Shown here: positions 2,780-51,616 of the stretch, piece after piece
Position numbering within the stretch: position 1 is the stretch's first letter
Layout of the letters: every line of letters starts with the position of its first letter
NCBI GenBank assembly: GCA_041690515.1
Contig: JAWLHF010000001.1
Span: forward strand, 1 to 62,050
From: Clostridiaceae bacterium
Lineage (GTDB): Bacteria; Bacillota; Clostridia; Lutisporales; Lutisporaceae
Length of the DNA stretch: 62,050 nt
Direction of reading: 5' to 3'
Translations under genes and position numbers: made by a program
Notes under the pieces: generated by a model
What the model was told of the DNA's origin: nothing
Databases searched by the model: none
Seen by the model: only the letters and a program-made list of their open reading frames with translations

Positions 2780-3145
2780 ATGACTGCTGAAAAAACAAGA
2801 ATAGAAAGCTGTAGCTGCTCTTACATTCATGAAGAGGTTGTGATGAAGGTCAGAGAAACCATGCCTCAGGAGGAGACTCTTTATGATCTGGCCGAGTTAT
2901 TCAAGGTTTTTGGTGATAGTACAAGAATAAAGATATTATGTGCATTGTTTGAATCTGAGATGTGCGTATGTGACATAGCTGCACTGCTGTCAATGAACCA
3001 ATCTGCCATATCACACCAGCTCAGAGTTCTAAAACAGGCCAGACTGGTGAAATACAGAAAAGAAGGAAAAGTTGTATATTATTCTCTGGATGATGATCAT
3101 GTTAAGCAGATATTCGACCACGGTCTTGCGCATGTAAACGAGTAA
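2780..3145 (+). CDS. cadC: ArsR/SmtB family metalloregulator, CadC-like (Cd/Pb/Zn sensor type)
   Basis: Winged-helix motif (ELFKVFGDSTRIKIL, SAISHQLRVLK), an alpha3 CVCD motif plus N-terminal Cys residues (ESCSCSY) as in CadC. The GGAGG inside the upstream ATG favours the start at 2780. Confidence 0.8.
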   Translation: MTAEKTRIESCSCSYIHEEVVMKVRETMPQEETLYDLAELFKVFGDSTRIKILCALFESEMCVCDIAALLSMNQSAISHQLRVLKQARLVKYRKEGKVVYYSLDDDHVKQIFDHGLAHVNE

Positions 3146-3180
3146 TAGTATCAATTGCTGTAATAAATGGGGGTAATATT

Positions 3181-5349
3181 GTGAGAAAAATTGAATCAGA
3201 GAAATTCACTTCAAAAGAAGATGAATATGTGCTAAGCAACTATATGCTGGAAGGTCTTGGGTGAGCCAACTGCGCAGCCAAGATGGAGCTTGGCATAAGA
3301 TCCCTGGATGGGGTCAGAAATGCTTCGATCGATTTTGTTACAAAGAGATTAAGGCTTGAGACATATAAGAGTGCTGACAGAGAAAGCTTGATGAAAGAAG
3401 TGAAAGATGTCATTGAAAGGATAGAATCCCATGTGAGGCTTGAAGCTGCAGCAGCATTGGAGAAGGGTAAAACAGCTTCGGAGGCAGAAAGTGTATTGGA
3501 TAGCCATAAACATGAGCTGATGAGGATAGCAGCCGGTGTACTGATACTCTTAGTAGCAGTGCTTTTAAAATTCCCTGAGGGTATTGAGTTAGCATTGTAC
3601 CTGCTCTCATATTTTATTGTCGGCGGAGAAGTGCTTATTAGATCCATAAGGAACATTGCAAAAGGACAGGTTTTTGATGAGAATTTCCTTATGAGTCTGG
3701 CTACCGTTGGTGCCTTTGCCATAGGTGAGTATTCAGAAGGTGTAGCTGTTATGCTTTTTTACCAGGTTGGCGAGCTGTTCCAGGATATGGCTGTAAATCG
3801 CTCAAGAAGGTCGATAAAAGCATTGCTGGATATACGTCCTGATTATGCGAATCTTTACACTGAGGGCAGGCTGGTGCAGGTATCCCCGGAAGCTGTGCAT
3901 GTGGGGGCTAAGATAATAGTGAAGCCGGGAGAGAAGATCCCGCTGGATGGCAGAATAATCGACGGAAGGTCAATGGTGGATACATCTGCCCTGACAGGGG
4001 AGTCGGTACCTAGAGGTGTAGATATCGAGGATGAGGTATTGGCCGGTTTTATTAACAAGAATGGAATGCTTACTGTGGAAGTGACCAGGGAATACGGGGA
4101 GTCCACTGTATCCAAGATACTTGATATGGTGCAGAATGCCAGCAGTAAGAAGTCACCTACGGAAAACTTCATCACGAAGTTTGCCAGGTACTACACACCT
4201 GTAGTTGTATTTACAGCCCTAGTCCTTGCAATTATACCGCCGCTGGCGGTACCGGGGGAAGCATTTAATGACTGGATATACAGAGCATTGATCTTTCTGG
4301 TGGTTTCGTGTCCCTGTGCTCTTGTAATATCCATACCCTTAGGATTTTTTGGAGGGATCGGCTGCGCTTCAAGGAATGGAATACTGATAAAGGGAAGCAG
4401 CTATCTTGAAGCTCTTAATAATATAGATACAGTTGTTTTTGATAAGACAGGAACGCTTACCAAAGGAGTCTTCAAGGTAGCAGAGGTCAAAGCAGTAGGA
4501 GGAATAAGCGGAGAAGAACTGCTCAAATACTCGGCATATGCCGAAAGCTGCTCCACTCATCCCATAGCAGTATCAATTATCAGGGAATATGGAAGAGAAA
4601 TAAAGGCTGAAGAGATTTTGGACTATGAGGAACTGCCGGGTTATGGGGTCAGCGCAACAGCTGAGGGAAGAAAGATAGTTGTCGGCAATGCAAGAATGAT
4701 GCAGAAAGAAAATATAGGATACAAAGCGGTGGATACTATAGGGACAGCAGTGCATGTGGTCATAGATGGCGAATATGCAGGATATATCACAATTGCTGAT
4801 GAGATAAAGGATGATGCTGAGACAGCAGTACGGCTCCTGAAGGATACCGGAGTCAGAAGGACTGTCATGCTTACAGGTGATGTAAGGACTGCAGGGGAGA
4901 AAGTAGCGGAAAAGCTTGGAATTGATGAGGTTTACTCAGAGCTCTTGCCGGATCAGAAGGTGGAAAGGTTGGAAGCGATAGAAAAGGATAAGAGGTCCGG
5001 AGGCAGGATTGCTTTCGCAGGAGACGGGATAAACGATGCTCCTGTCCTGGCAAGAGCTGATATAGGCATAGCAATGGGAGGTCTTGGTTCTGATGCGGCT
5101 ATTGAAGCTGCTGATATTGTGATTATGACTGATGAACCCTCCAAAATAGCAAGCGCCATAAAGATCGCAAAGAGAACCAGGAGGATAGTATGGCAGAATA
5201 TACTGCTTGCCATGGGGGTAAAAGGAATTGTGCTGATTTTGGGAGCGGGTGGAATTGCGACTATGTGGGAAGCGGTTTTTGCCGATGTAGGCGTCGCCCT
5301 AATAGCTGTACTGAATTCCATAAGGGTATTGAACCAGAAAAATATATAG
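3181..5349 (+). CDS. cadA: Heavy-metal (Cd/Zn/Pb-type, CPC) translocating P1B-type ATPase. The N-terminal HMA domain carries TGA (3262-3264) in place of the first Cys of the CxxC motif (candidate selenocysteine, or nonsense mutation with restart at ATG 3283)
   Basis: GTG at 3181 sits 8 nt after GGGGG. The frame is open from 3181 to 5349 except for the TGA. Translation is ...YVLSNYMLEGLG-TGA-ANCAAKMELGIRSLDGVRNASIDFVTKRLRLET (HMA fold). Core motifs present: SCPCALV, FDKTGTLT, GDGINDAP. Confidence 0.85.
3277..3294 (+). promoter_or_regulatory. SECIS-like hairpin 12 nt downstream of the in-frame TGA
   Basis: GCCAAG-AUGGAG-CUUGGC is a 6-bp stem with a 6-nt G-containing loop. The spacing from UGA is compatible with bacterial SECIS geometry. 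This is not proof, because the hairpin is short. Confidence 0.35.
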
Positions 5350-5377: not shown

Positions 5378-5406
5378 GGGACGCCCATTGGGCGTCCGTT
5401 TTTTTA
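5378..5406 (+). terminator. Rho-independent terminator of cadA, built from a GGACGSCCATTGGSCGTCC palindromic unit
   Basis: GGGACGCCCATTGGGCGTCC followed by GTTTTTTT. Confidence 0.8.
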
Positions 5407-5469
5407 CGTATATACAAAGGAACAGGCATATATGGACAAAAATATAATGATAAAAAGGAGGGATTTGTT

Positions 5470-5853
5470 ATGAATACAGACAGTCAAGCTGCACCTGCAC
5501 AGCGGGAAAGGGCGGGTACTGCGGAAGCTGACTTAGCCAGCAGGCTTCTTCTTATAAGTTCAATCATAGTCAATGTAGTAGAAGGGGATAACTTTCTGAT
5601 ATTAGCTTCTTTGATAAGCATTACGGCAGGCATCCTTACCATAAAGGCTGCATATCTGGAATCTGCCGAACAGCAAATAGCTCCGGGAGTAACAACTTTT
5701 GCAAACGGACTGAAGATAATTGGAAGTAATCTGAGTATTGTAGTGTCCTTATTGCTGTTCTGGGCTTTGATTATTGAAGTAAGGATAAAACAGACAGAAC
5801 CGGTAGCTGCTGAGCCTTTATTGGCAGGTTCTTTAGGTGCATTTATGGTATAA
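5470..5853 (+). CDS. Hypothetical small membrane protein
   Basis: 127-aa ORF with a GGAGG RBS and three hydrophobic segments. No recognisable family. Confidence 0.5.
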   Translation: MNTDSQAAPAQRERAGTAEADLASRLLLISSIIVNVVEGDNFLILASLISITAGILTIKAAYLESAEQQIAPGVTTFANGLKIIGSNLSIVVSLLLFWALIIEVRIKQTEPVAAEPLLAGSLGAFMV

Positions 5854-5914
5854 TACTGTAATTAATTACCATTGAATTGGTAATTAAAATTGCTTAAAAT
5901 ATAGACAAGCTGTA

Positions 5915-6030
5915 CTGGTGGCTTAATCCCGAAAGGGAACGGGGGATATTCATGAGGTGAAAGGCGGCACCTGGGGGGACCGCCTGGGGCATACTCTCTG
6001 TCCTAACCTGTCAACTAACCTCGTAAGCAA
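5915..6030 (+). promoter_or_regulatory. Candidate c-di-AMP (ydaO/kimA-type) riboswitch
   Basis: GCTTAATCCCGAAAGGGAACGGGGGA...GGTGAAAGGCGGCACCTGGGGGGACCGCCTGGGGCA...CTAACCTCGTAAGC. The 5' GCUUA pairs with the 3' UAAGC, and ACGGGGGA, CCGCC and CUGGGG blocks are present as in the ydaO motif. It lies upstream of a cell-wall protein gene, a typical context. Confidence 0.6.
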
Positions 6031-6103
6031 ATATAATGTAGAATACAATGCAGATGTGATGTCATTGGGCTTGTGCATTATATGTTGAAAGGAGAGTCAG
6101 TAT

Positions 6104-6862
6104 TTGAAGCCAGGAAAAATTCTAGTATTTTTACTTGTTGTGGTGCTCTGCACTTCATCTGTCACCTTTGCCGATGTACTCAAAAACGGCAGCAGGGGTG
6201 AAGAGGTGAAGAAGCTCCAGACTGAGTTGAAGAAAAAAGGCTATTTTACAGCTGGAGTAACAGGCTACTTTGGTAGTTTGACGGAAGCAGCGGTGAGAAA
6301 GTTCCAAACCAATAGCAAGCTTGCAGTTGACGGAGTGGTTGGAGTAAAAACATCAAAAGCCCTTTTCGGAACATCGGGGACAAGCTCCGGAAAAGTAGAG
6401 CTGCTGGATTGGTGGACCGGTGCATCCAAGGTTTTCAAAATAGGAATGACAGCGAAGGTTACCGATGTAAGAACAGGCAAGACCTTCAATATCGTACGTA
6501 CATATGGCGGCAATCATGCTGATTGTGAGGCCAAAACCACATCGGATTCTAAAAAGATTAAAGAGATCTGGGGCGGCTGGAGTTGGACACGTAGACCGGT
6601 GGTTCTGGAGGTCGACGGACGAAAAATTGCGGCATCAATTGCTGCAATGCCTCATGCAGGGGTAGACAGCTCGCCTGCCAACAAAACCATAAGCAGCAGA
6701 AGCGGTGGTTATGGCAAAGGTGCAAACCTTGACAAAATAAAGAATAATGGTATGAGCGGAGTAATAGATGTACACTTCCTCAACAGCAGAACCCATGGCA
6801 CAAACAAAGTTGACAGCAAACATCAGGCTGCAGTAAAAGAAGCAGCTAAAAACGGTAAATAG
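6104..6862 (+). CDS. Secreted peptidoglycan-binding domain (PG_binding_1) protein with an uncharacterised C-terminal domain
   Basis: TTG start after AAAGGAGAG, a signal peptide, and the motif GSRGEEVKKLQTELKKKGYF...VDGVVGVKT typical of PG-binding repeats. Confidence 0.7.
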   Translation: MKPGKILVFLLVVVLCTSSVTFADVLKNGSRGEEVKKLQTELKKKGYFTAGVTGYFGSLTEAAVRKFQTNSKLAVDGVVGVKTSKALFGTSGTSSGKVELLDWWTGASKVFKIGMTAKVTDVRTGKTFNIVRTYGGNHADCEAKTTSDSKKIKEIWGGWSWTRRPVVLEVDGRKIAASIAAMPHAGVDSSPANKTISSRSGGYGKGANLDKIKNNGMSGVIDVHFLNSRTHGTNKVDSKHQAAVKEAAKNGK

Positions 6863-8771: not shown

Positions 8772-9407
8772 ATGGATATACTGTCAATTATACTGATAGC
8801 TGTTGGCCTTTCTATGGATGCCTTCGCTGTATCGGTGACAAACGGGATTATCATAAGGGATTTGAAGGCAGGACATGTCTTGAAAATCGGGCTTTACTTC
8901 GGTGCATTTCAGGCAATTATGCCTCTGATTGGCTGGCTTGCAGGTTTTCAATTCAAGGATTACATAGTGACTATAGATCACTGGATAGCTTTTGGATTGT
9001 TGGCGATACTGGGGGTCAAGATGATACACGAAGCTTTTGGTGAAGAAATGGGGGAGGAAGCAGTAAAAGAAGATATGTGTGAAGTAGCTATATCCACCCA
9101 GGGTACAGTATGTGAGAGCCCTTTAAGGAAAGGAAGACTGCTGGTACTTGCAGTGGCCACCAGCATTGATGCCCTTGCTGTTGGCATCAGCTTTGCTTTT
9201 CTGCAGGTATCAATTGTTCTTTCAGCATTGGTAATAGGATTGATTACCTTTGGGATATGTTGTGCAGGAGTATGCATAGGCAACAGATTTGGAGGCCTGC
9301 TGAAAAAGAAAGCGGAGATAGCAGGGGGACTTATATTGATAAGCATTGGACTTAAGATACTTCTGGAGCATACGGGATTTATTTATAAAATTATATCTGT
9401 ACTATGA
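8772..9407 (+). CDS. mntP: Manganese efflux pump MntP
   Basis: N-terminal sequence MDILSIILIAVGLSMDAFAVSV...GAFQAIMPLIGW and the repeated SIDALAVG half-domain. RBS GGAGGA. TGA stop. Confidence 0.85.
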   Translation: MDILSIILIAVGLSMDAFAVSVTNGIIIRDLKAGHVLKIGLYFGAFQAIMPLIGWLAGFQFKDYIVTIDHWIAFGLLAILGVKMIHEAFGEEMGEEAVKEDMCEVAISTQGTVCESPLRKGRLLVLAVATSIDALAVGISFAFLQVSIVLSALVIGLITFGICCAGVCIGNRFGGLLKKKAEIAGGLILISIGLKILLEHTGFIYKIISVL

Positions 9408-9433: not shown

Positions 9434-9542
9434 CTCTTCATAATTTCTTCATAGTATTTCGGTAGAATCAAGGATAATATGGAATACAAACGCATTCCAA
9501 TATGGATTTCGGATGGAGAATATATCTGGGGGGAAGTGTCGT

Positions 9543-10955
9543 ATGAAAATAGCGAAAATTGTACTGAAGGTTGAAGACATGACCTGTACCGGCTGCGAAG
9601 CAAGGATAGAGAATGAGCTGAAAAAGCTGGAGGGTGTGGAGAAGATAAAGGCAGAATACGCAAAAGCAAAGGTAATTGTCACATATAATTCAGATAAGAT
9701 AAGTGCGAGGGACATCATACAAGGTATTGAAAGAGCGGGATACAAGGGGTATGACCATGAGAAGAAGCCTGCCGGCGGAGTCTTGCAGTCCGGGGAGAAC
9801 ATGAGCCAGCTGTTAGGTATAGGAGTAATAATGGCGGCTCTTTATGTCATTATTAATAATACCATCGGCTTTAACTTCATACCCGAGGTGAATCAGTCCA
9901 TGGGGTATGGGATACTGTTTGTGGTTGGGCTTCTTACTTCCTTGCACTGTATTGCAATGTGCGGTGGGATAAATCTCTCCCAGTGCATTAATTACAAGCA
10001 TACTTCAAGCTCAGGTACCGGCAGTATGAAGCCGGGGTTGTTGTACAATACTGGCAGAGTGGTATCTTATACCGTAATCGGAGGCATAGTCGGAGGTATA
10101 GGTTCGGTTGTCAGCTTCTCGGGAAGTGCGAAGGGTATCGTAGCAATAATTGCAGGTTTATTTATGATTGTAATGGGAGTAAACATGCTTGGTATTTTTC
10201 CATGGCTCAAAAGATTCAATCCCAGAATGCCCAAGATATTTGGTGAAAAAATATATGGAAGCAGAGGGAAAAACGGTCCTTTTTATGTAGGACTTCTGAA
10301 CGGCCTTATGCCCTGCGGCCCTCTGCAGGCAATGCAGCTATACGCACTTGGTACCGGAAGCGTGATCTCAGGAGCAATGTCTATGTTTTTCTTTAGCCTT
10401 GGAACAGTTCCGCTGATGCTTGGCTTTGGAACAGTAATCACAATGTTTGGCAAGAAGCTGAGCGGAAGGCTGATGAAGGTAAGCGCCGTACTGGTGGTGG
10501 TGCTCGGAGTCATAATGATGAGCAGGGGTATGATGCTTTCGGGAGTCAATACGACTTTTGCAGATGCGCCTGCCAGCGGGAATATTGCTGTTGTAAGAAA
10601 TGGTATACAAGAGGTATCCATTGACCTTAAACCCAACAGATATGATCCTGTGGTTGTACAGAAAGGGATTCCTGTAAGATTTATAATTAATGCGGAAGCC
10701 GAAAATATAAACGGATGCAATAATGCAATAATAATACCGAAGCATAATATACAAAAAGCTTTGATGCCGGGAGAGAACATCATTGAGTTCATACCTGAGG
10801 AAACAGGCACTGTTCCTTATTCATGCTGGATGGGTATGATAGGGAGCAGCATAAAGGTTGTTGAAGATCTGGCTCAAGTCACAGAGAAAGATATTGAAAG
10901 TGCAGAGGCAGGTGTGGTTCCCGGAGGCGGAAGCGGAGGCTGCTGTGGATTTTAA
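9543..10955 (+). CDS. Three-domain metal protein: N-terminal HMA (MTCTGCE), a polytopic DsbD_2/TauE-SafE-like membrane core (LHCIAMCGG ... LMPCGPLQ), a C-terminal cupredoxin-like domain (YSCWMGMIG) and a GGSGGCCGF tail
   Basis: The domain motifs are read directly from the translation. The start at ATG 9543 follows a GGGGGGAAG RBS. Confidence 0.75.
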   Translation: MKIAKIVLKVEDMTCTGCEARIENELKKLEGVEKIKAEYAKAKVIVTYNSDKISARDIIQGIERAGYKGYDHEKKPAGGVLQSGENMSQLLGIGVIMAALYVIINNTIGFNFIPEVNQSMGYGILFVVGLLTSLHCIAMCGGINLSQCINYKHTSSSGTGSMKPGLLYNTGRVVSYTVIGGIVGGIGSVVSFSGSAKGIVAIIAGLFMIVMGVNMLGIFPWLKRFNPRMPKIFGEKIYGSRGKNGPFYVGLLNGLMPCGPLQAMQLYALGTGSVISGAMSMFFFSLGTVPLMLGFGTVITMFGKKLSGRLMKVSAVLVVVLGVIMMSRGMMLSGVNTTFADAPASGNIAVVRNGIQEVSIDLKPNRYDPVVVQKGIPVRFIINAEAENINGCNNAIIIPKHNIQKALMPGENIIEFIPEETGTVPYSCWMGMIGSSIKVVEDLAQVTEKDIESAEAGVVPGGGSGGCCGF

Positions 10956-25731: not shown

Positions 25732-25862
25732 CGACAAAAGCTCATTCCCAGCCTTTTACATTAGCAGATATAGTAAAAGGCAGCCCTTTCTTTACAATCC
25801 TTGACAAAAATGATAAAGGGTATTACAGTTGAATTAATATAATAATAAGCGGGTGTTTATTT

Positions 25863-26514: not shown

Positions 26515-28074
26515 ATGAAAAGGTTTGTGTTGATGGTGCTGGTGGTTGTGATTATGGCTGCCGCCATAGCTTGCACTGATGGATAAAAGGCTATACAACA
26601 GCTGGAAAAGCCGGTTAAGATCATGAAGGTCGCGGAGCAGGAGAGTCCGGTTATTTTGAACTACACAGGCGTTGTAGGTTCAAGTGAGCTTAAGCATCTG
26701 GCGTTCAAGAGTACGGGGAAGATAGCAGATATTAACATTCAAAAGGGACAGTTGGTTAGAAAAGGTGAAGTGCTGGTAAAACTTGAGGATCAGGATCTTC
26801 AATATGCGCTGGCAGCAGCTAAAGCCCAAATGGGTGCAGCACAATCAGCCTATGAAAAGGCAGTGAACGGAGCTTTGCCGGAAGAGCTAAGAATCGCAGA
26901 ACTTGATGTAAAAAAGGCTCAGGATGCATATGAGTATATAATGGAAAATTATAAACGGGCGGAAGCTCTATATAAAAGTGGGGCTGTATCTGTGAATGGA
27001 TTGGAGCAGGGAGATCCGGTAGGCTCACCGGTGACGGTCAGGATAACAGGTATGGACATTGAAAGGCTTGGAGAGACTGCCGAGCAGATAAGGAAGCGGC
27101 TTTCTGACATTGCAGGGACAATGAATATAGATGATGATTATTCAGACAGGGTATATAGATTCAATGTTGATATGGACAGTGACAAGGCAAGTATGTATGG
27201 AATCACAAGCTATGATGTTCAGAATGAGATGAACATCCTGCTTCAGGGCAGGACTGTATCGGTATTCCGGAGGGACGGAAAAGAGTACGGTATTTTGTTG
27301 AAAAGCAGCATAAAGAGTAAGGAGGAATTGGAGAATTTCATGATAAGCTCCACAGCAGCCTCAAGGAAGGTGCTGTTGAAGGATATTGCCGATATTGGCC
27401 TTGCCAGTGAGCTTCCAAGTATAAGAAAGCATGACGGTGAGTTGTGTGTCACGGTATACAGTGATGTACAGTCGGGTTATAGCGCTGTTAAGATTGAAGA
27501 AGAGCTGAAAAAGAGAGTAAAGGATATGCAGCTGGATGATTTCAGGATAGTTTACAGCGGTGAAAAAAGCAAAATAGATCAATATTTTGGTGAGCTTGGC
27601 AGTTCATCGGTTTTTGCAGTATTGGTCATATTTGCGATTCTAATGGTACAGTTCAATTCCTTCATTCAGCCGTTGATAATCATGCTGACCATACCTCTTT
27701 CGGCAATAGGATCTGTATTGGGACTCTTTATCTTCAGACAACCTCTGTCCTTCACAGCTTTACTTGGAATAGTCAGTCTGTTGGGCATTGTTGTCAATAA
27801 TGCAATAATCCTGGTGGATTACATCAATGATGAAAGAAAACAAGGGAAATCTCTTGATGCTGCATGTAAGGATGCTGTTAACATGCGTTTCAGGCCTATA
27901 ATGCTGACTACTACTACCACTGTCATAGGGCTGGTACCGCTTGTTATGTCAGGAAGTCAGCTTTTTGCCCCGATGGCGATAGCTCTAATGTTCGGGTTGC
28001 TTCTTTCCACCCTGCTGACTCTGGTGATAATACCGGTAGTTTACAACCTGGTTGAAATGAAGATAAAGAAGTAA
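26515..28074 (+). pseudogene. Decayed RND efflux system: lipoprotein signal, in-frame TAA (26584-26586), the N-terminal third of a membrane-fusion protein, fused in frame near 27007 to the C-terminal third of an AcrB-type RND permease
   Basis: Translation is MKRFVLMVLVVVIMAAAIACTDG-TAA-KAIQQLEKPVKIMKVAEQ... The HlyD-like lipoyl and coiled-coil start (GQLVRKGEVLVKLEDQDLQYALAAAKAQ) then jumps after SGAVSVNGLEQ to GDPVGSPVTVRITGMDIERL and the RND TM8-12 region (VNNAIILVDYINDERKQG, RFRPIMLTTTTTVIGLVPL). Confidence 0.8.
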
Positions 28075-51462: not shown

Positions 51463-51616
51463 ATACAATCCTTGATGGTACTAAGGAACTCCGCCTAAGA
51501 AAAACCTAACGCTTTCAAATCGTCATCCTTGACTCATGAAAGCTCGCTCGGCGTCCATGCCTCGCGTACGGTTGTTTCTAAGGCTGCGTTCCTAAGTACC
51601 ATTGGCAAGTCTTGTA
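51463..51616. repeat. Long imperfect palindromic element between the regulator gene and the transporter operon
   Basis: The ~44-nt arm ATACAATCCTTGATGGTACTAAGGAACTCCGCCTAAGAAAAACC pairs with GGTTGTTTCTAAGGCTGCGTTCCTAAGTACCATTGGCAAGTCTTGTAT. The central part contains GCTTTCA..TGAAAGC. Confidence 0.75.

Follow-up and report, generated by a model that had tools for sequence, protein, structure and literature searches.

Does a heavy-metal pump gene that is interrupted by an in-frame TGA, at precisely the codon where a metal-binding cysteine is expected, encode a selenoprotein, a protein made in some other way or nothing intact at all? The gene in question lies at positions 3181 to 5349 of a 62,050-nucleotide (nt) stretch of DNA from a Clostridiaceae bacterium (GenBank assembly GCA_041690515.1, contig JAWLHF010000001.1), referred to here as the window, which is one whole contig and begins inside a Prismane gene. 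We favor, with a probability of roughly 0.85, the reading that TGA 3262-3264 is a selenocysteine (Sec) codon and that the product is a pump of 722 residues whose single N-terminal heavy-metal-associated (HMA) domain would bind metal through the motif U-A-N-C in place of C-x-x-C. The initial annotation, made from the letters of the sequence, had put forward the same reading, and it has gained support from selection on both sides of the TGA, from covarying RNA structure and from a Sec-containing peroxiredoxin in syntenic relatives. The elements of the gene, all on the forward strand, are as follows.

3169-3173, +, ribosome-binding site GGGGG, 7 nt ahead of the GTG start
3181-5349, +, full-length P1B-type (Zn/Cd/Pb class) ATPase gene, 722 codons with one UGA taken as Sec
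3244-3429, +, HMA domain (Pfam PF00403, residues 22 to 83) with the metal motif G-L-G-U-A-N-C
3262-3264, +, TGA, the proposed Sec codon, aligned with the first Cys of CxxC (HMA GxCxxC)
3271-3273, +, TGC, the Cys of UxxC and second metal ligand, located after the TGA and before the ATG chosen by gene callers
3283-3285, +, ATG in the loop of the first hairpin, annotated start of the 688-residue reading frame and used by more than 50 database proteins

The frame that opens at GTG 3181-3183 runs to TAG 5347-5349, is continuous with the 688-residue ATPase open reading frame (ORF) and contains a single internal stop, TGA 3262-3264, as the initial annotation had described; the GGGGG-GTG start that it proposed also stands, with a spacing of 7 nt and not 8 nt. 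Translation around the stop reads EDEYVLSNYMLEGLG-*-ANCAAKMELGIRSLDG, with YMLEGLG immediately before the stop. When Cys was substituted for the stop, PF00403 matched residues 22 to 83 at 33.2 bits (cut-off, 24.8; E = 6.8e-8), so that the TGA does fall at the first Cys of a complete HMA domain. Because 10 of the 51 window ORFs of at least 100 residues genuinely end in TGA, the genetic code is standard and not reassigned; among the 10 are the four genes that had been cited to the same effect, mntP, nifS, znuB and a kinase gene, with ends at 9407, 13219 (the kinase), 14520 and 35107. A Shine-Dalgarno-like sequence was sought by eye in 3265-3282 and none was found, leaving ATG 3283 without a ribosome-binding site of its own.

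The remainder of the pump matches the E1-E2_ATPase and HAD hydrolase (Hydrolase) domains of Pfam, and the protein scores 570.6 bits against TIGR01525 (cut-off, 346.25) and 526 bits against the cadmium family TIGR01512 (cut-off, 313.5). Its translation carries SCPCALVISIP (CPCx4SxP), NILLAMGVK (Nx7K), ADVG (DxG) and FDKTGTLT, which holds the DKTGT phosphorylation site; CPC, Nx7K and DxG we take to be the transmembrane signatures of the P1B-2 (Zn/Cd/Pb) subgroup. The equivalog level of ZntA and CadA was not reached (NF008262, 505.7 bits against 1005; NF033775, 454.5 bits against 1240). By these matches the pump is a member of the P1B-2 subfamily and not a ZntA orthologue, and it would presumably be specific for Zn, Cd and Pb. 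The U-A-N-C at 3262-3273 corresponds to the UxxC motif of the TIGR01525/COG2217 selenoprotein family.

Conservation of the TGA and selection around it

A protein search was conducted with the full-length sequence, and DNA was then obtained for nine clusters from NCBI, JGI, ENA and Logan assemblies, with close Sec forms on contig DASPIR010000033.1 of GCA_035628995.1, on contig JAKQDU010000064.1 of GCA_029573635.1 and on the 677-kb JGI contig Ga0196970_1000004. An exact look-up of the 688-residue product gave no match, and in the protein cluster search P0001 was carried by the window's own contig alone. Of the best 120 clusters, 42 (67 to 75% amino acid identity) are exactly 688 residues long and have no HMA domain, and a few neighbors of 703 to 735 residues possess one. 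More than 50 database clusters, formed at 90% identity and 687 to 693 residues in length, all begin with M(E/D)LGI(K/R)SL, that is, at the Met six codons past the TGA. In the DNA, a TGA occupies the same codon in nine distinct orthologous loci (67 to 75% amino acid identity) and in one distant homologue, L009, from a Tissierella metagenome-assembled genome (about 59% identity), which has two HMA domains and carries G-L-G-TGA-A-N-C in the membrane-proximal one. The initial annotation had called for an alignment of orthologues that would reveal whether the codon is TGA or Cys and whether the downstream hairpin covaries; this alignment yielded the conserved TGA and also the compensatory hairpin changes described below.

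L009, L161-L173 and L176-L178, loci with TGA at the same codon, by locus alignment

In all nine orthologous loci the upstream frame is open and has a start codon (GTG, ATG or TTG) 17 to 27 codons before the TGA, and a GGGGGT or GGAGGT ribosome-binding site stands at an equal distance from that start. The motif itself varies among the homologues with TGA (Sec forms), occurring as UANC, UGGC, UAAC, UAVC and UAHC, and the nearest homologues with Cys at the codon (Cys forms) read GLGCANC and GLDCANC. Among the matches listed, 163 HMA matches from homologous loci have Cys in the TGA column, and scans of genome and metagenome contigs for the pump returned, again among the matches listed, nearly all Cys forms at no more than 64% identity, with L009 as the sole Sec form and the close Sec clade absent. 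In a neighbor-joining tree the Cys forms P0003, P0013/P0016 and P0026 are nested inside an otherwise all-Sec clade. Because the basal members of that clade are Sec forms as well, Sec is probably ancestral in the clade, with at least three reversions to Cys, and the reversions within it are all to the Cys codons TGC and TGT.

In the Sec forms, the 10 codons before the TGA, which encode the beta-1 strand of the HMA domain, E-(F/Y)-(I/M/V)-L-x-G-L-G, vary mostly synonymously, with proportions of synonymous (pS) and nonsynonymous (pN) differences of 0.55 and 0.26 (pN/pS, 0.47), and the six codons from the TGA to the ATG have a pS of 0.47 and a pN of 0.16 (pN/pS, 0.34). The second metal-binding residue is invariably Cys in the Sec forms, its codon undergoing synonymous TGC/TGT changes only. 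These values point to purifying selection on the codons on both sides of the TGA; since the six codons between the TGA and ATG 3283 would remain untranslated if the protein began at that ATG, selection upon them argues for translation through the TGA.

Two hairpins downstream of the TGA

Bacterial Sec insertion sequence (SECIS) elements are described as stem-loops with a loop of 3 to 9 nt, a stem of 4 to 16 bp, a G in the first two loop positions, a spacing of 16 to 37 nt and a folding energy of -7.5 kcal/mol or lower (PMC13188914). Two candidate structures follow the TGA in the window.

3277-3294, +, hairpin 1, GCCAAG-AUGGAG-CUUGGC, 12 nt past the UGA with the loop beginning after 18 nt; SECIS candidate by spacing
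3299-3315, +, hairpin 2, GAUCCC-UGGAU-GGGGUC, with the loop beginning 40 nt past the UGA; SECIS candidate by loop sequence

Hairpin 1 was present in the initial annotation; it does lie 12 nt past the TGA, and it has a predicted energy of -9.2 kcal/mol (z, -2.75; 1 of 200 shuffles equally stable); hairpin 2, which that annotation lacked, folds at -9.8 kcal/mol. Each has four of the five published features: the loop of 6 nt, stem of 6 bp, spacing of 18 nt and energy of hairpin 1 lie within the rules and its loop fails the G rule, and hairpin 2 has G-G at loop positions 2 and 3 with a spacing of 40 nt, outside the range of 16 to 37 nt. A permissive Rfam scan of 3150-3400 returned a chance match only (E = 4.1).

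Each Sec form that was folded is predicted to have the two hairpins, L009 with a shifted 5' arm in hairpin 1 and L171 with one mismatch. In L177 a G-C pair of hairpin 1 is replaced by U-A through compensatory changes (one arm going from GCC to TCC, the other from GGC to GGA), in L176 an A-U pair has become G-U, and L009 forms a different stem of 7 bp whose 3' arm is at the same position as that of hairpin 1. Hairpin 2 of L009 has two compensatory pairs (AUCCC/GGGAU to ACACC/GGUGU); in this hairpin 98.3% of alignment cells are paired, and three of the six pairs are altered on both sides, as contributed by L009 and the window. The loop G of hairpin 2 is present in all 10 Sec forms and is replaced by U in the Cys forms L175 and L179. 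Over both hairpins, 91.5% of the cells in the 10-sequence alignment are paired, against 20 to 51% in slid controls, with four pairs changed on both sides, and none of 500 shuffles matched the observed values. Synonymous divergence is likewise depressed in the 12 hairpin codons (0.25, against 0.55 upstream and 0.69 downstream).

As a control, the 56 nt after the aligned codon were folded for all homologous loci, comprising 9 distinct Sec forms and 96 Cys forms. The Sec forms had a mean energy of -18.0 kcal/mol (z, -2.7), compared with -7.2 kcal/mol (z, -0.17) for the Cys forms (Mann-Whitney p of about 2e-6), and the independent Sec form L009 had the strongest z (-4.4). The Cys revertants are graded in the same respect: L174 (TGC) keeps both hairpins; in L175 (TGT) four synonymous changes break both; and L179 has lost hairpin 1 through amino acid changes (MEHAL) and has a U for the loop G of hairpin 2. 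The three would represent a series of hairpin decay after reversion of Sec to Cys. Against the consensus rules the outcome for a SECIS element is divided, each hairpin breaking one rule, but on comparative grounds, namely conservation, covariation and the contrast with the Cys forms, the case for the candidate hairpins is strong.

A further fold was considered and rejected as a SECIS element, in which GCCAAG (3277-3282) pairs with the upstream CUUGGG/CUUGGC segment (3256-3261) and encloses the UGA; a ribosome positioned at the UGA would already have melted the upstream arm. RNAalifold favors this UGA-enclosing fold when 12 nt upstream of the stop are included, and on untranslated mRNA it could compete with hairpin 1.

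Decoding of the TGA and competing explanations

If the TGA is a Sec codon, translation would begin at GTG 3181 and, at the UGA, SelB carrying Sec-tRNA(Sec) would be recruited by the tandem 6-bp hairpins at 3277-3294 and 3299-3315; Sec would be inserted and translation would continue through what remains of the HMA domain and through the pump. The dependence of this decoding on SelB, and which of the two hairpins SelB would bind, are suppositions, as is the suggestion that a selenolate would give the sensor domain a higher affinity or a faster exchange for soft metals.

The capacity of the lineage to decode Sec is suggested by a second gene. The window and its relatives share a gene order (Prismane, GFO/IDH/MocA oxidoreductase, ArsR, pump, a 127-residue ORF, peptidoglycan-binding protein, MntP, HMA-DsbD protein, response regulator, kinase, NifS and ThiI), and in the syntenic loci L162, L163 and L164 a peroxiredoxin gene, 6 to 8 kb upstream of the pump, has a TGA at the peroxidatic Cys (FFYPLDFTPV-U-STE). 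A hairpin, UUCAACC-GUAG-GGUUGAA, whose loop opens with GU, follows this TGA, and peroxiredoxin is an established selenoprotein family.

L163:1675-2175, L162:2690-3190 and L164:2-277, -, Sec-peroxiredoxin (AhpC-TSA) gene, called as two pieces (42 and 113 residues)

Since syntenic relatives carry this Sec-peroxiredoxin gene, the lineage itself appears to decode Sec.

Several observations weigh against a Sec codon. The genes selA, selB and selD and a tRNA-Sec were not found within the 62-kb window or the 179 fetched loci, and the Sec-peroxiredoxin is known from the relatives, the corresponding region lying outside the window. A single clade accounts for eight of the nine Sec forms whose energies were compared, which are thus non-independent, the covariation is carried by few sequences, and hairpin 1 persists in L174, the nearest Cys form. 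Neither hairpin satisfies the whole of the published SECIS model (PMC13188914). The naming of 30 window ORFs by NCBIfam likewise produced no selA, selB or selD. To our knowledge, selenium incorporation has been proved experimentally for no member of the pump family.

A scan of the window for further TGA-interrupted genes gave no convincing second selenoprotein. One candidate from that scan, at 25830, was rejected as the untranslated leader of a TetR-like gene.

An extension of the Sec reading would make this a selenium-gated gene with two products and an atypical, tandem-hairpin SECIS element: in the presence of selenium the full-length Sec-HMA pump would be produced, and in its absence the UGA would terminate translation, with reinitiation at the invariant AUG 18 nt on giving a pump with an incomplete HMA domain. 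We regard this elaboration as unlikely. If true, the truncated pump would still transport metal and resistance to metal would never depend on the selenium supply, and one hairpin with canonical spacing combined with one of canonical loop would constitute a distinct class of bacterial SECIS element.

The same AUG is central to an explanation that dispenses with selenium, in which the UGA always ends a leader ORF of 27 codons and the pump arising from reinitiation 18 nt on has only an incomplete HMA domain. None of the 10 Sec forms departs from this AUG, which a hairpin loop leaves exposed, every gene caller chooses it, and P1B pumps can often transport without their N-terminal HMA domains. However, the six codons from the UGA to the AUG, including that for the second metal-binding Cys, bear the purifying selection already described (pN/pS, 0.34), the peptide encoded upstream coincides exactly with the HMA beta-1 strand plus GLG and is conserved in amino acid sequence, the AUG has no ribosome-binding site, and Met or Ile at its position is common in Cys forms too. 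As the sole mode of expression such a split does not fit the data, and overall we consider it very improbable; reinitiation at the AUG as a back-up under selenium lack is compatible with them.

Read-through without Sec, either by a near-cognate tRNA (Trp or Cys) at low efficiency or by another form of suppression aided by the downstream structure, would account for the conserved frame and the structure with no need of sel genes, none of which was observed in the window or the fetched loci, and would accommodate hairpins that do not fully fit the SECIS consensus. Yet the UGA is placed exactly at a metal-ligand Cys, the commonest site of Sec/Cys exchange, the reversions in the clade all produce the Cys codons TGC and TGT, the relatives possess a classic Sec-peroxiredoxin, and Trp at the metal ligand would destroy the site, and we view this explanation as very improbable.

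The possibility that the gene is a pseudogene, or that the TGA is a sequencing error or a recent nonsense mutation, for which a single TGC/TGT to TGA change would suffice and which would leave the 688-residue ORF intact, is negligible, given that the same TGA occurs in independent NCBI, JGI, ENA and Logan assemblies across 25 to 33% protein divergence, that selection acts on both of its sides and that the basal clade members carry it too; the very recent mutation that the initial annotation had kept as its alternative is excluded by the nine orthologous loci and L009 with TGA at the same codon and by the more than 50 clusters that start at the same Met.

Genomic setting and relation to known systems

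The putative selenoprotein pump is the second gene of a two-gene operon, the other elements of which are listed here.

2694-2722, +, sigma-70-like promoter TTGACT-17-TAATAT of the two-gene operon, from a consensus scan
2734-2761, no strand assigned, perfect 12-4-12 inverted repeat ATATGAACATAT-ATTC-ATATGTTCATAT, from a repeat search, 100% complementary
2780-3145, +, ArsR/SmtB (CadC-like) metalloregulator gene, ATG 2780 after GGAGG; the mechanical ORF starts at 2768
5379-5397 (5379-5407 with the T run), +, intrinsic terminator GGACGCCC-ATT-GGGCGTCC followed by a T run at the end of the operon, from a terminator scan, 8 pairs of which 7 are G-C

The regulator matches Pfam HTH_5 (E = 6.6e-21) and NCBIfam NF033788 (107.8 bits; cut-off, 55), and its cysteines include a CSC near the N terminus and a CVC in the helix region, which are candidate metal ligands. 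Nine of 10 relatives share the TTGAC(T/A) and the -10 region ahead of the regulator gene, L168 being masked by N at that point, and the palindrome core ACATATGAA...ATATGTTCA recurs in relatives. By virtue of its position and of the regulator family, the palindrome is probably the operator of an ArsR/CadC-type repressor, and the CadC-like protein would probably bind at 2734-2761 and let go upon binding metal. The CadC-type control envisaged in the initial annotation is thus borne out at the level of the family, through the NF033788 score, the CVC motif and the conserved upstream palindrome. Palindrome and promoter are conserved at the same position in L161-L178 and could define the binding motif of a subfamily of CadC-like regulators. 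A 127-residue ORF at 5470-5853 (+), without a Pfam or NCBIfam match, comes next after the pump in most relatives, among Sec and Cys forms alike (L161-L168, L171-L173, L175 and L179), and its product may be a functional partner of the pump.

Elsewhere in the window, Rfam at gathering threshold identified only two RNAs, a c-di-AMP riboswitch (RF00379; 69.6 bits; 5910-6045, +) directly 5' of a gene for a peptidoglycan-binding-domain protein (6104-6862) and a TwoAYGGAY RNA (RF01731; 50.3 bits; gathering score, 43; 51470-51607, -) flanked by a response-regulator gene and a sugar ABC transporter operon. In an ORF of 483 residues at 26623-28074 (+), an N-terminal segment of an RND periplasmic adaptor (residues 1 to 130) is followed directly by the last third of an RND permease (model positions of about 650 to 1009), an arrangement suggestive of a deletion remnant or of chimeric assembly. 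At 9513-10955 (+), adjoining a two-component system, is a membrane protein in which an N-terminal HMA domain of the Cys form (MTCTGCE) is fused to a DsbD-like transmembrane part; this HMA domain has a sub-threshold match to NF041115 (55 bits against 95), and versions of 474 and 615 residues occur in relatives.

The case had been taken as novel, and in this it has to be corrected: the heavy-metal P-type ATPase family TIGR01525/COG2217 is already a predicted selenoprotein family (PMC1287953, PMC1976440, PMC9312934, PMC13188914), with a motif given as UxxC (PMC13188914, PMC9312934). The window pump adds a member to a family of selenoproteins predicted since 2005. The locus adds to what was known in four respects: how large and how old the Sec clade is, the systematic shortening of its members in databases, the tandem hairpins and the series of decay from Sec to Cys. 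Public databases shorten the gene to 688 residues (NCBI has P0007 as a plain heavy-metal P-type ATPase), and the metal-sensing domain and the selenium dependence of the clade are thereby hidden. A stable ancestral Sec with at least three reversions, one revertant retaining the hairpins and two being partly or fully without them, would provide a natural series for the study of SECIS decay, and the tandem hairpins, with their imperfect fit to the consensus, may help to refine SECIS predictors for Firmicutes. The pump would also be a clean test case for the effect of a selenolate ligand in an HMA metal site; reviews state that confirmation of a Sec-ligand interaction is lacking for these transporter families, and the latest review treats the transporter selenoproteins as predictions without experimental confirmation.

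Four known systems bear comparison with the locus. As in the E. coli fdhF-type SECIS element (Zhang and Gladyshev consensus, PMC13188914), the structure is a stem-loop within coding sequence shortly past the UGA, but the window has two conserved hairpins in tandem and the fdhF type one. In common with the CadC-CadA system of the Staphylococcus aureus pI258 type and with ZntA, an ArsR/SmtB repressor with a CVC motif precedes a P1B-2 ATPase with an N-terminal HMA domain, and the CPC, N(x7)K, DxG and DKTGT signatures and a predicted palindromic operator overlapping the promoter are further points of likeness to CadC-CadA; the first metal ligand of the window pump, in contrast, is putatively Sec, and the equivalog models give 454 to 506 bits against cut-offs of 1005 to 1240. 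The NCBIfam families NF041115 ("UxxU metal-binding (seleno)protein") and NF045683 ("MerT/CopZ fusion-like heavy metal transport selenoprotein") similarly have Sec in place of a metal-ligand Cys of an HMA/CopZ-type domain; those proteins are small and chaperone-like or are fused to MerT, with UxxU or other motifs, whereas the HMA domain of the window is the regulatory N-terminal domain of an ATP-driven pump and only its first ligand would be Sec.

The closest counterpart is found in Carboxydothermus hydrogenoformans, in which Wu et al. (2005) described two Sec-containing transporters, CHY0860 and CHY0565 (PMC1287953). Its pump is also a heavy-metal P1B ATPase with Sec in UxxC, predicted from Sec/Cys homology and a stem-loop past the UGA; the likeness to ABB15669.1 is one of family and UxxC motif. 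C. hydrogenoformans is a thermophilic isolate, whereas the window lineage consists of uncultured, mesophile-type Clostridia contigs. The C. hydrogenoformans case was described in 2005 as a recent and isolated invention (PMC1287953), in contrast to the clade of the window pump, in which Sec is probably ancestral; this clade numbers over 50 clusters (90% identity), and Cys has been regained in it at least three times.

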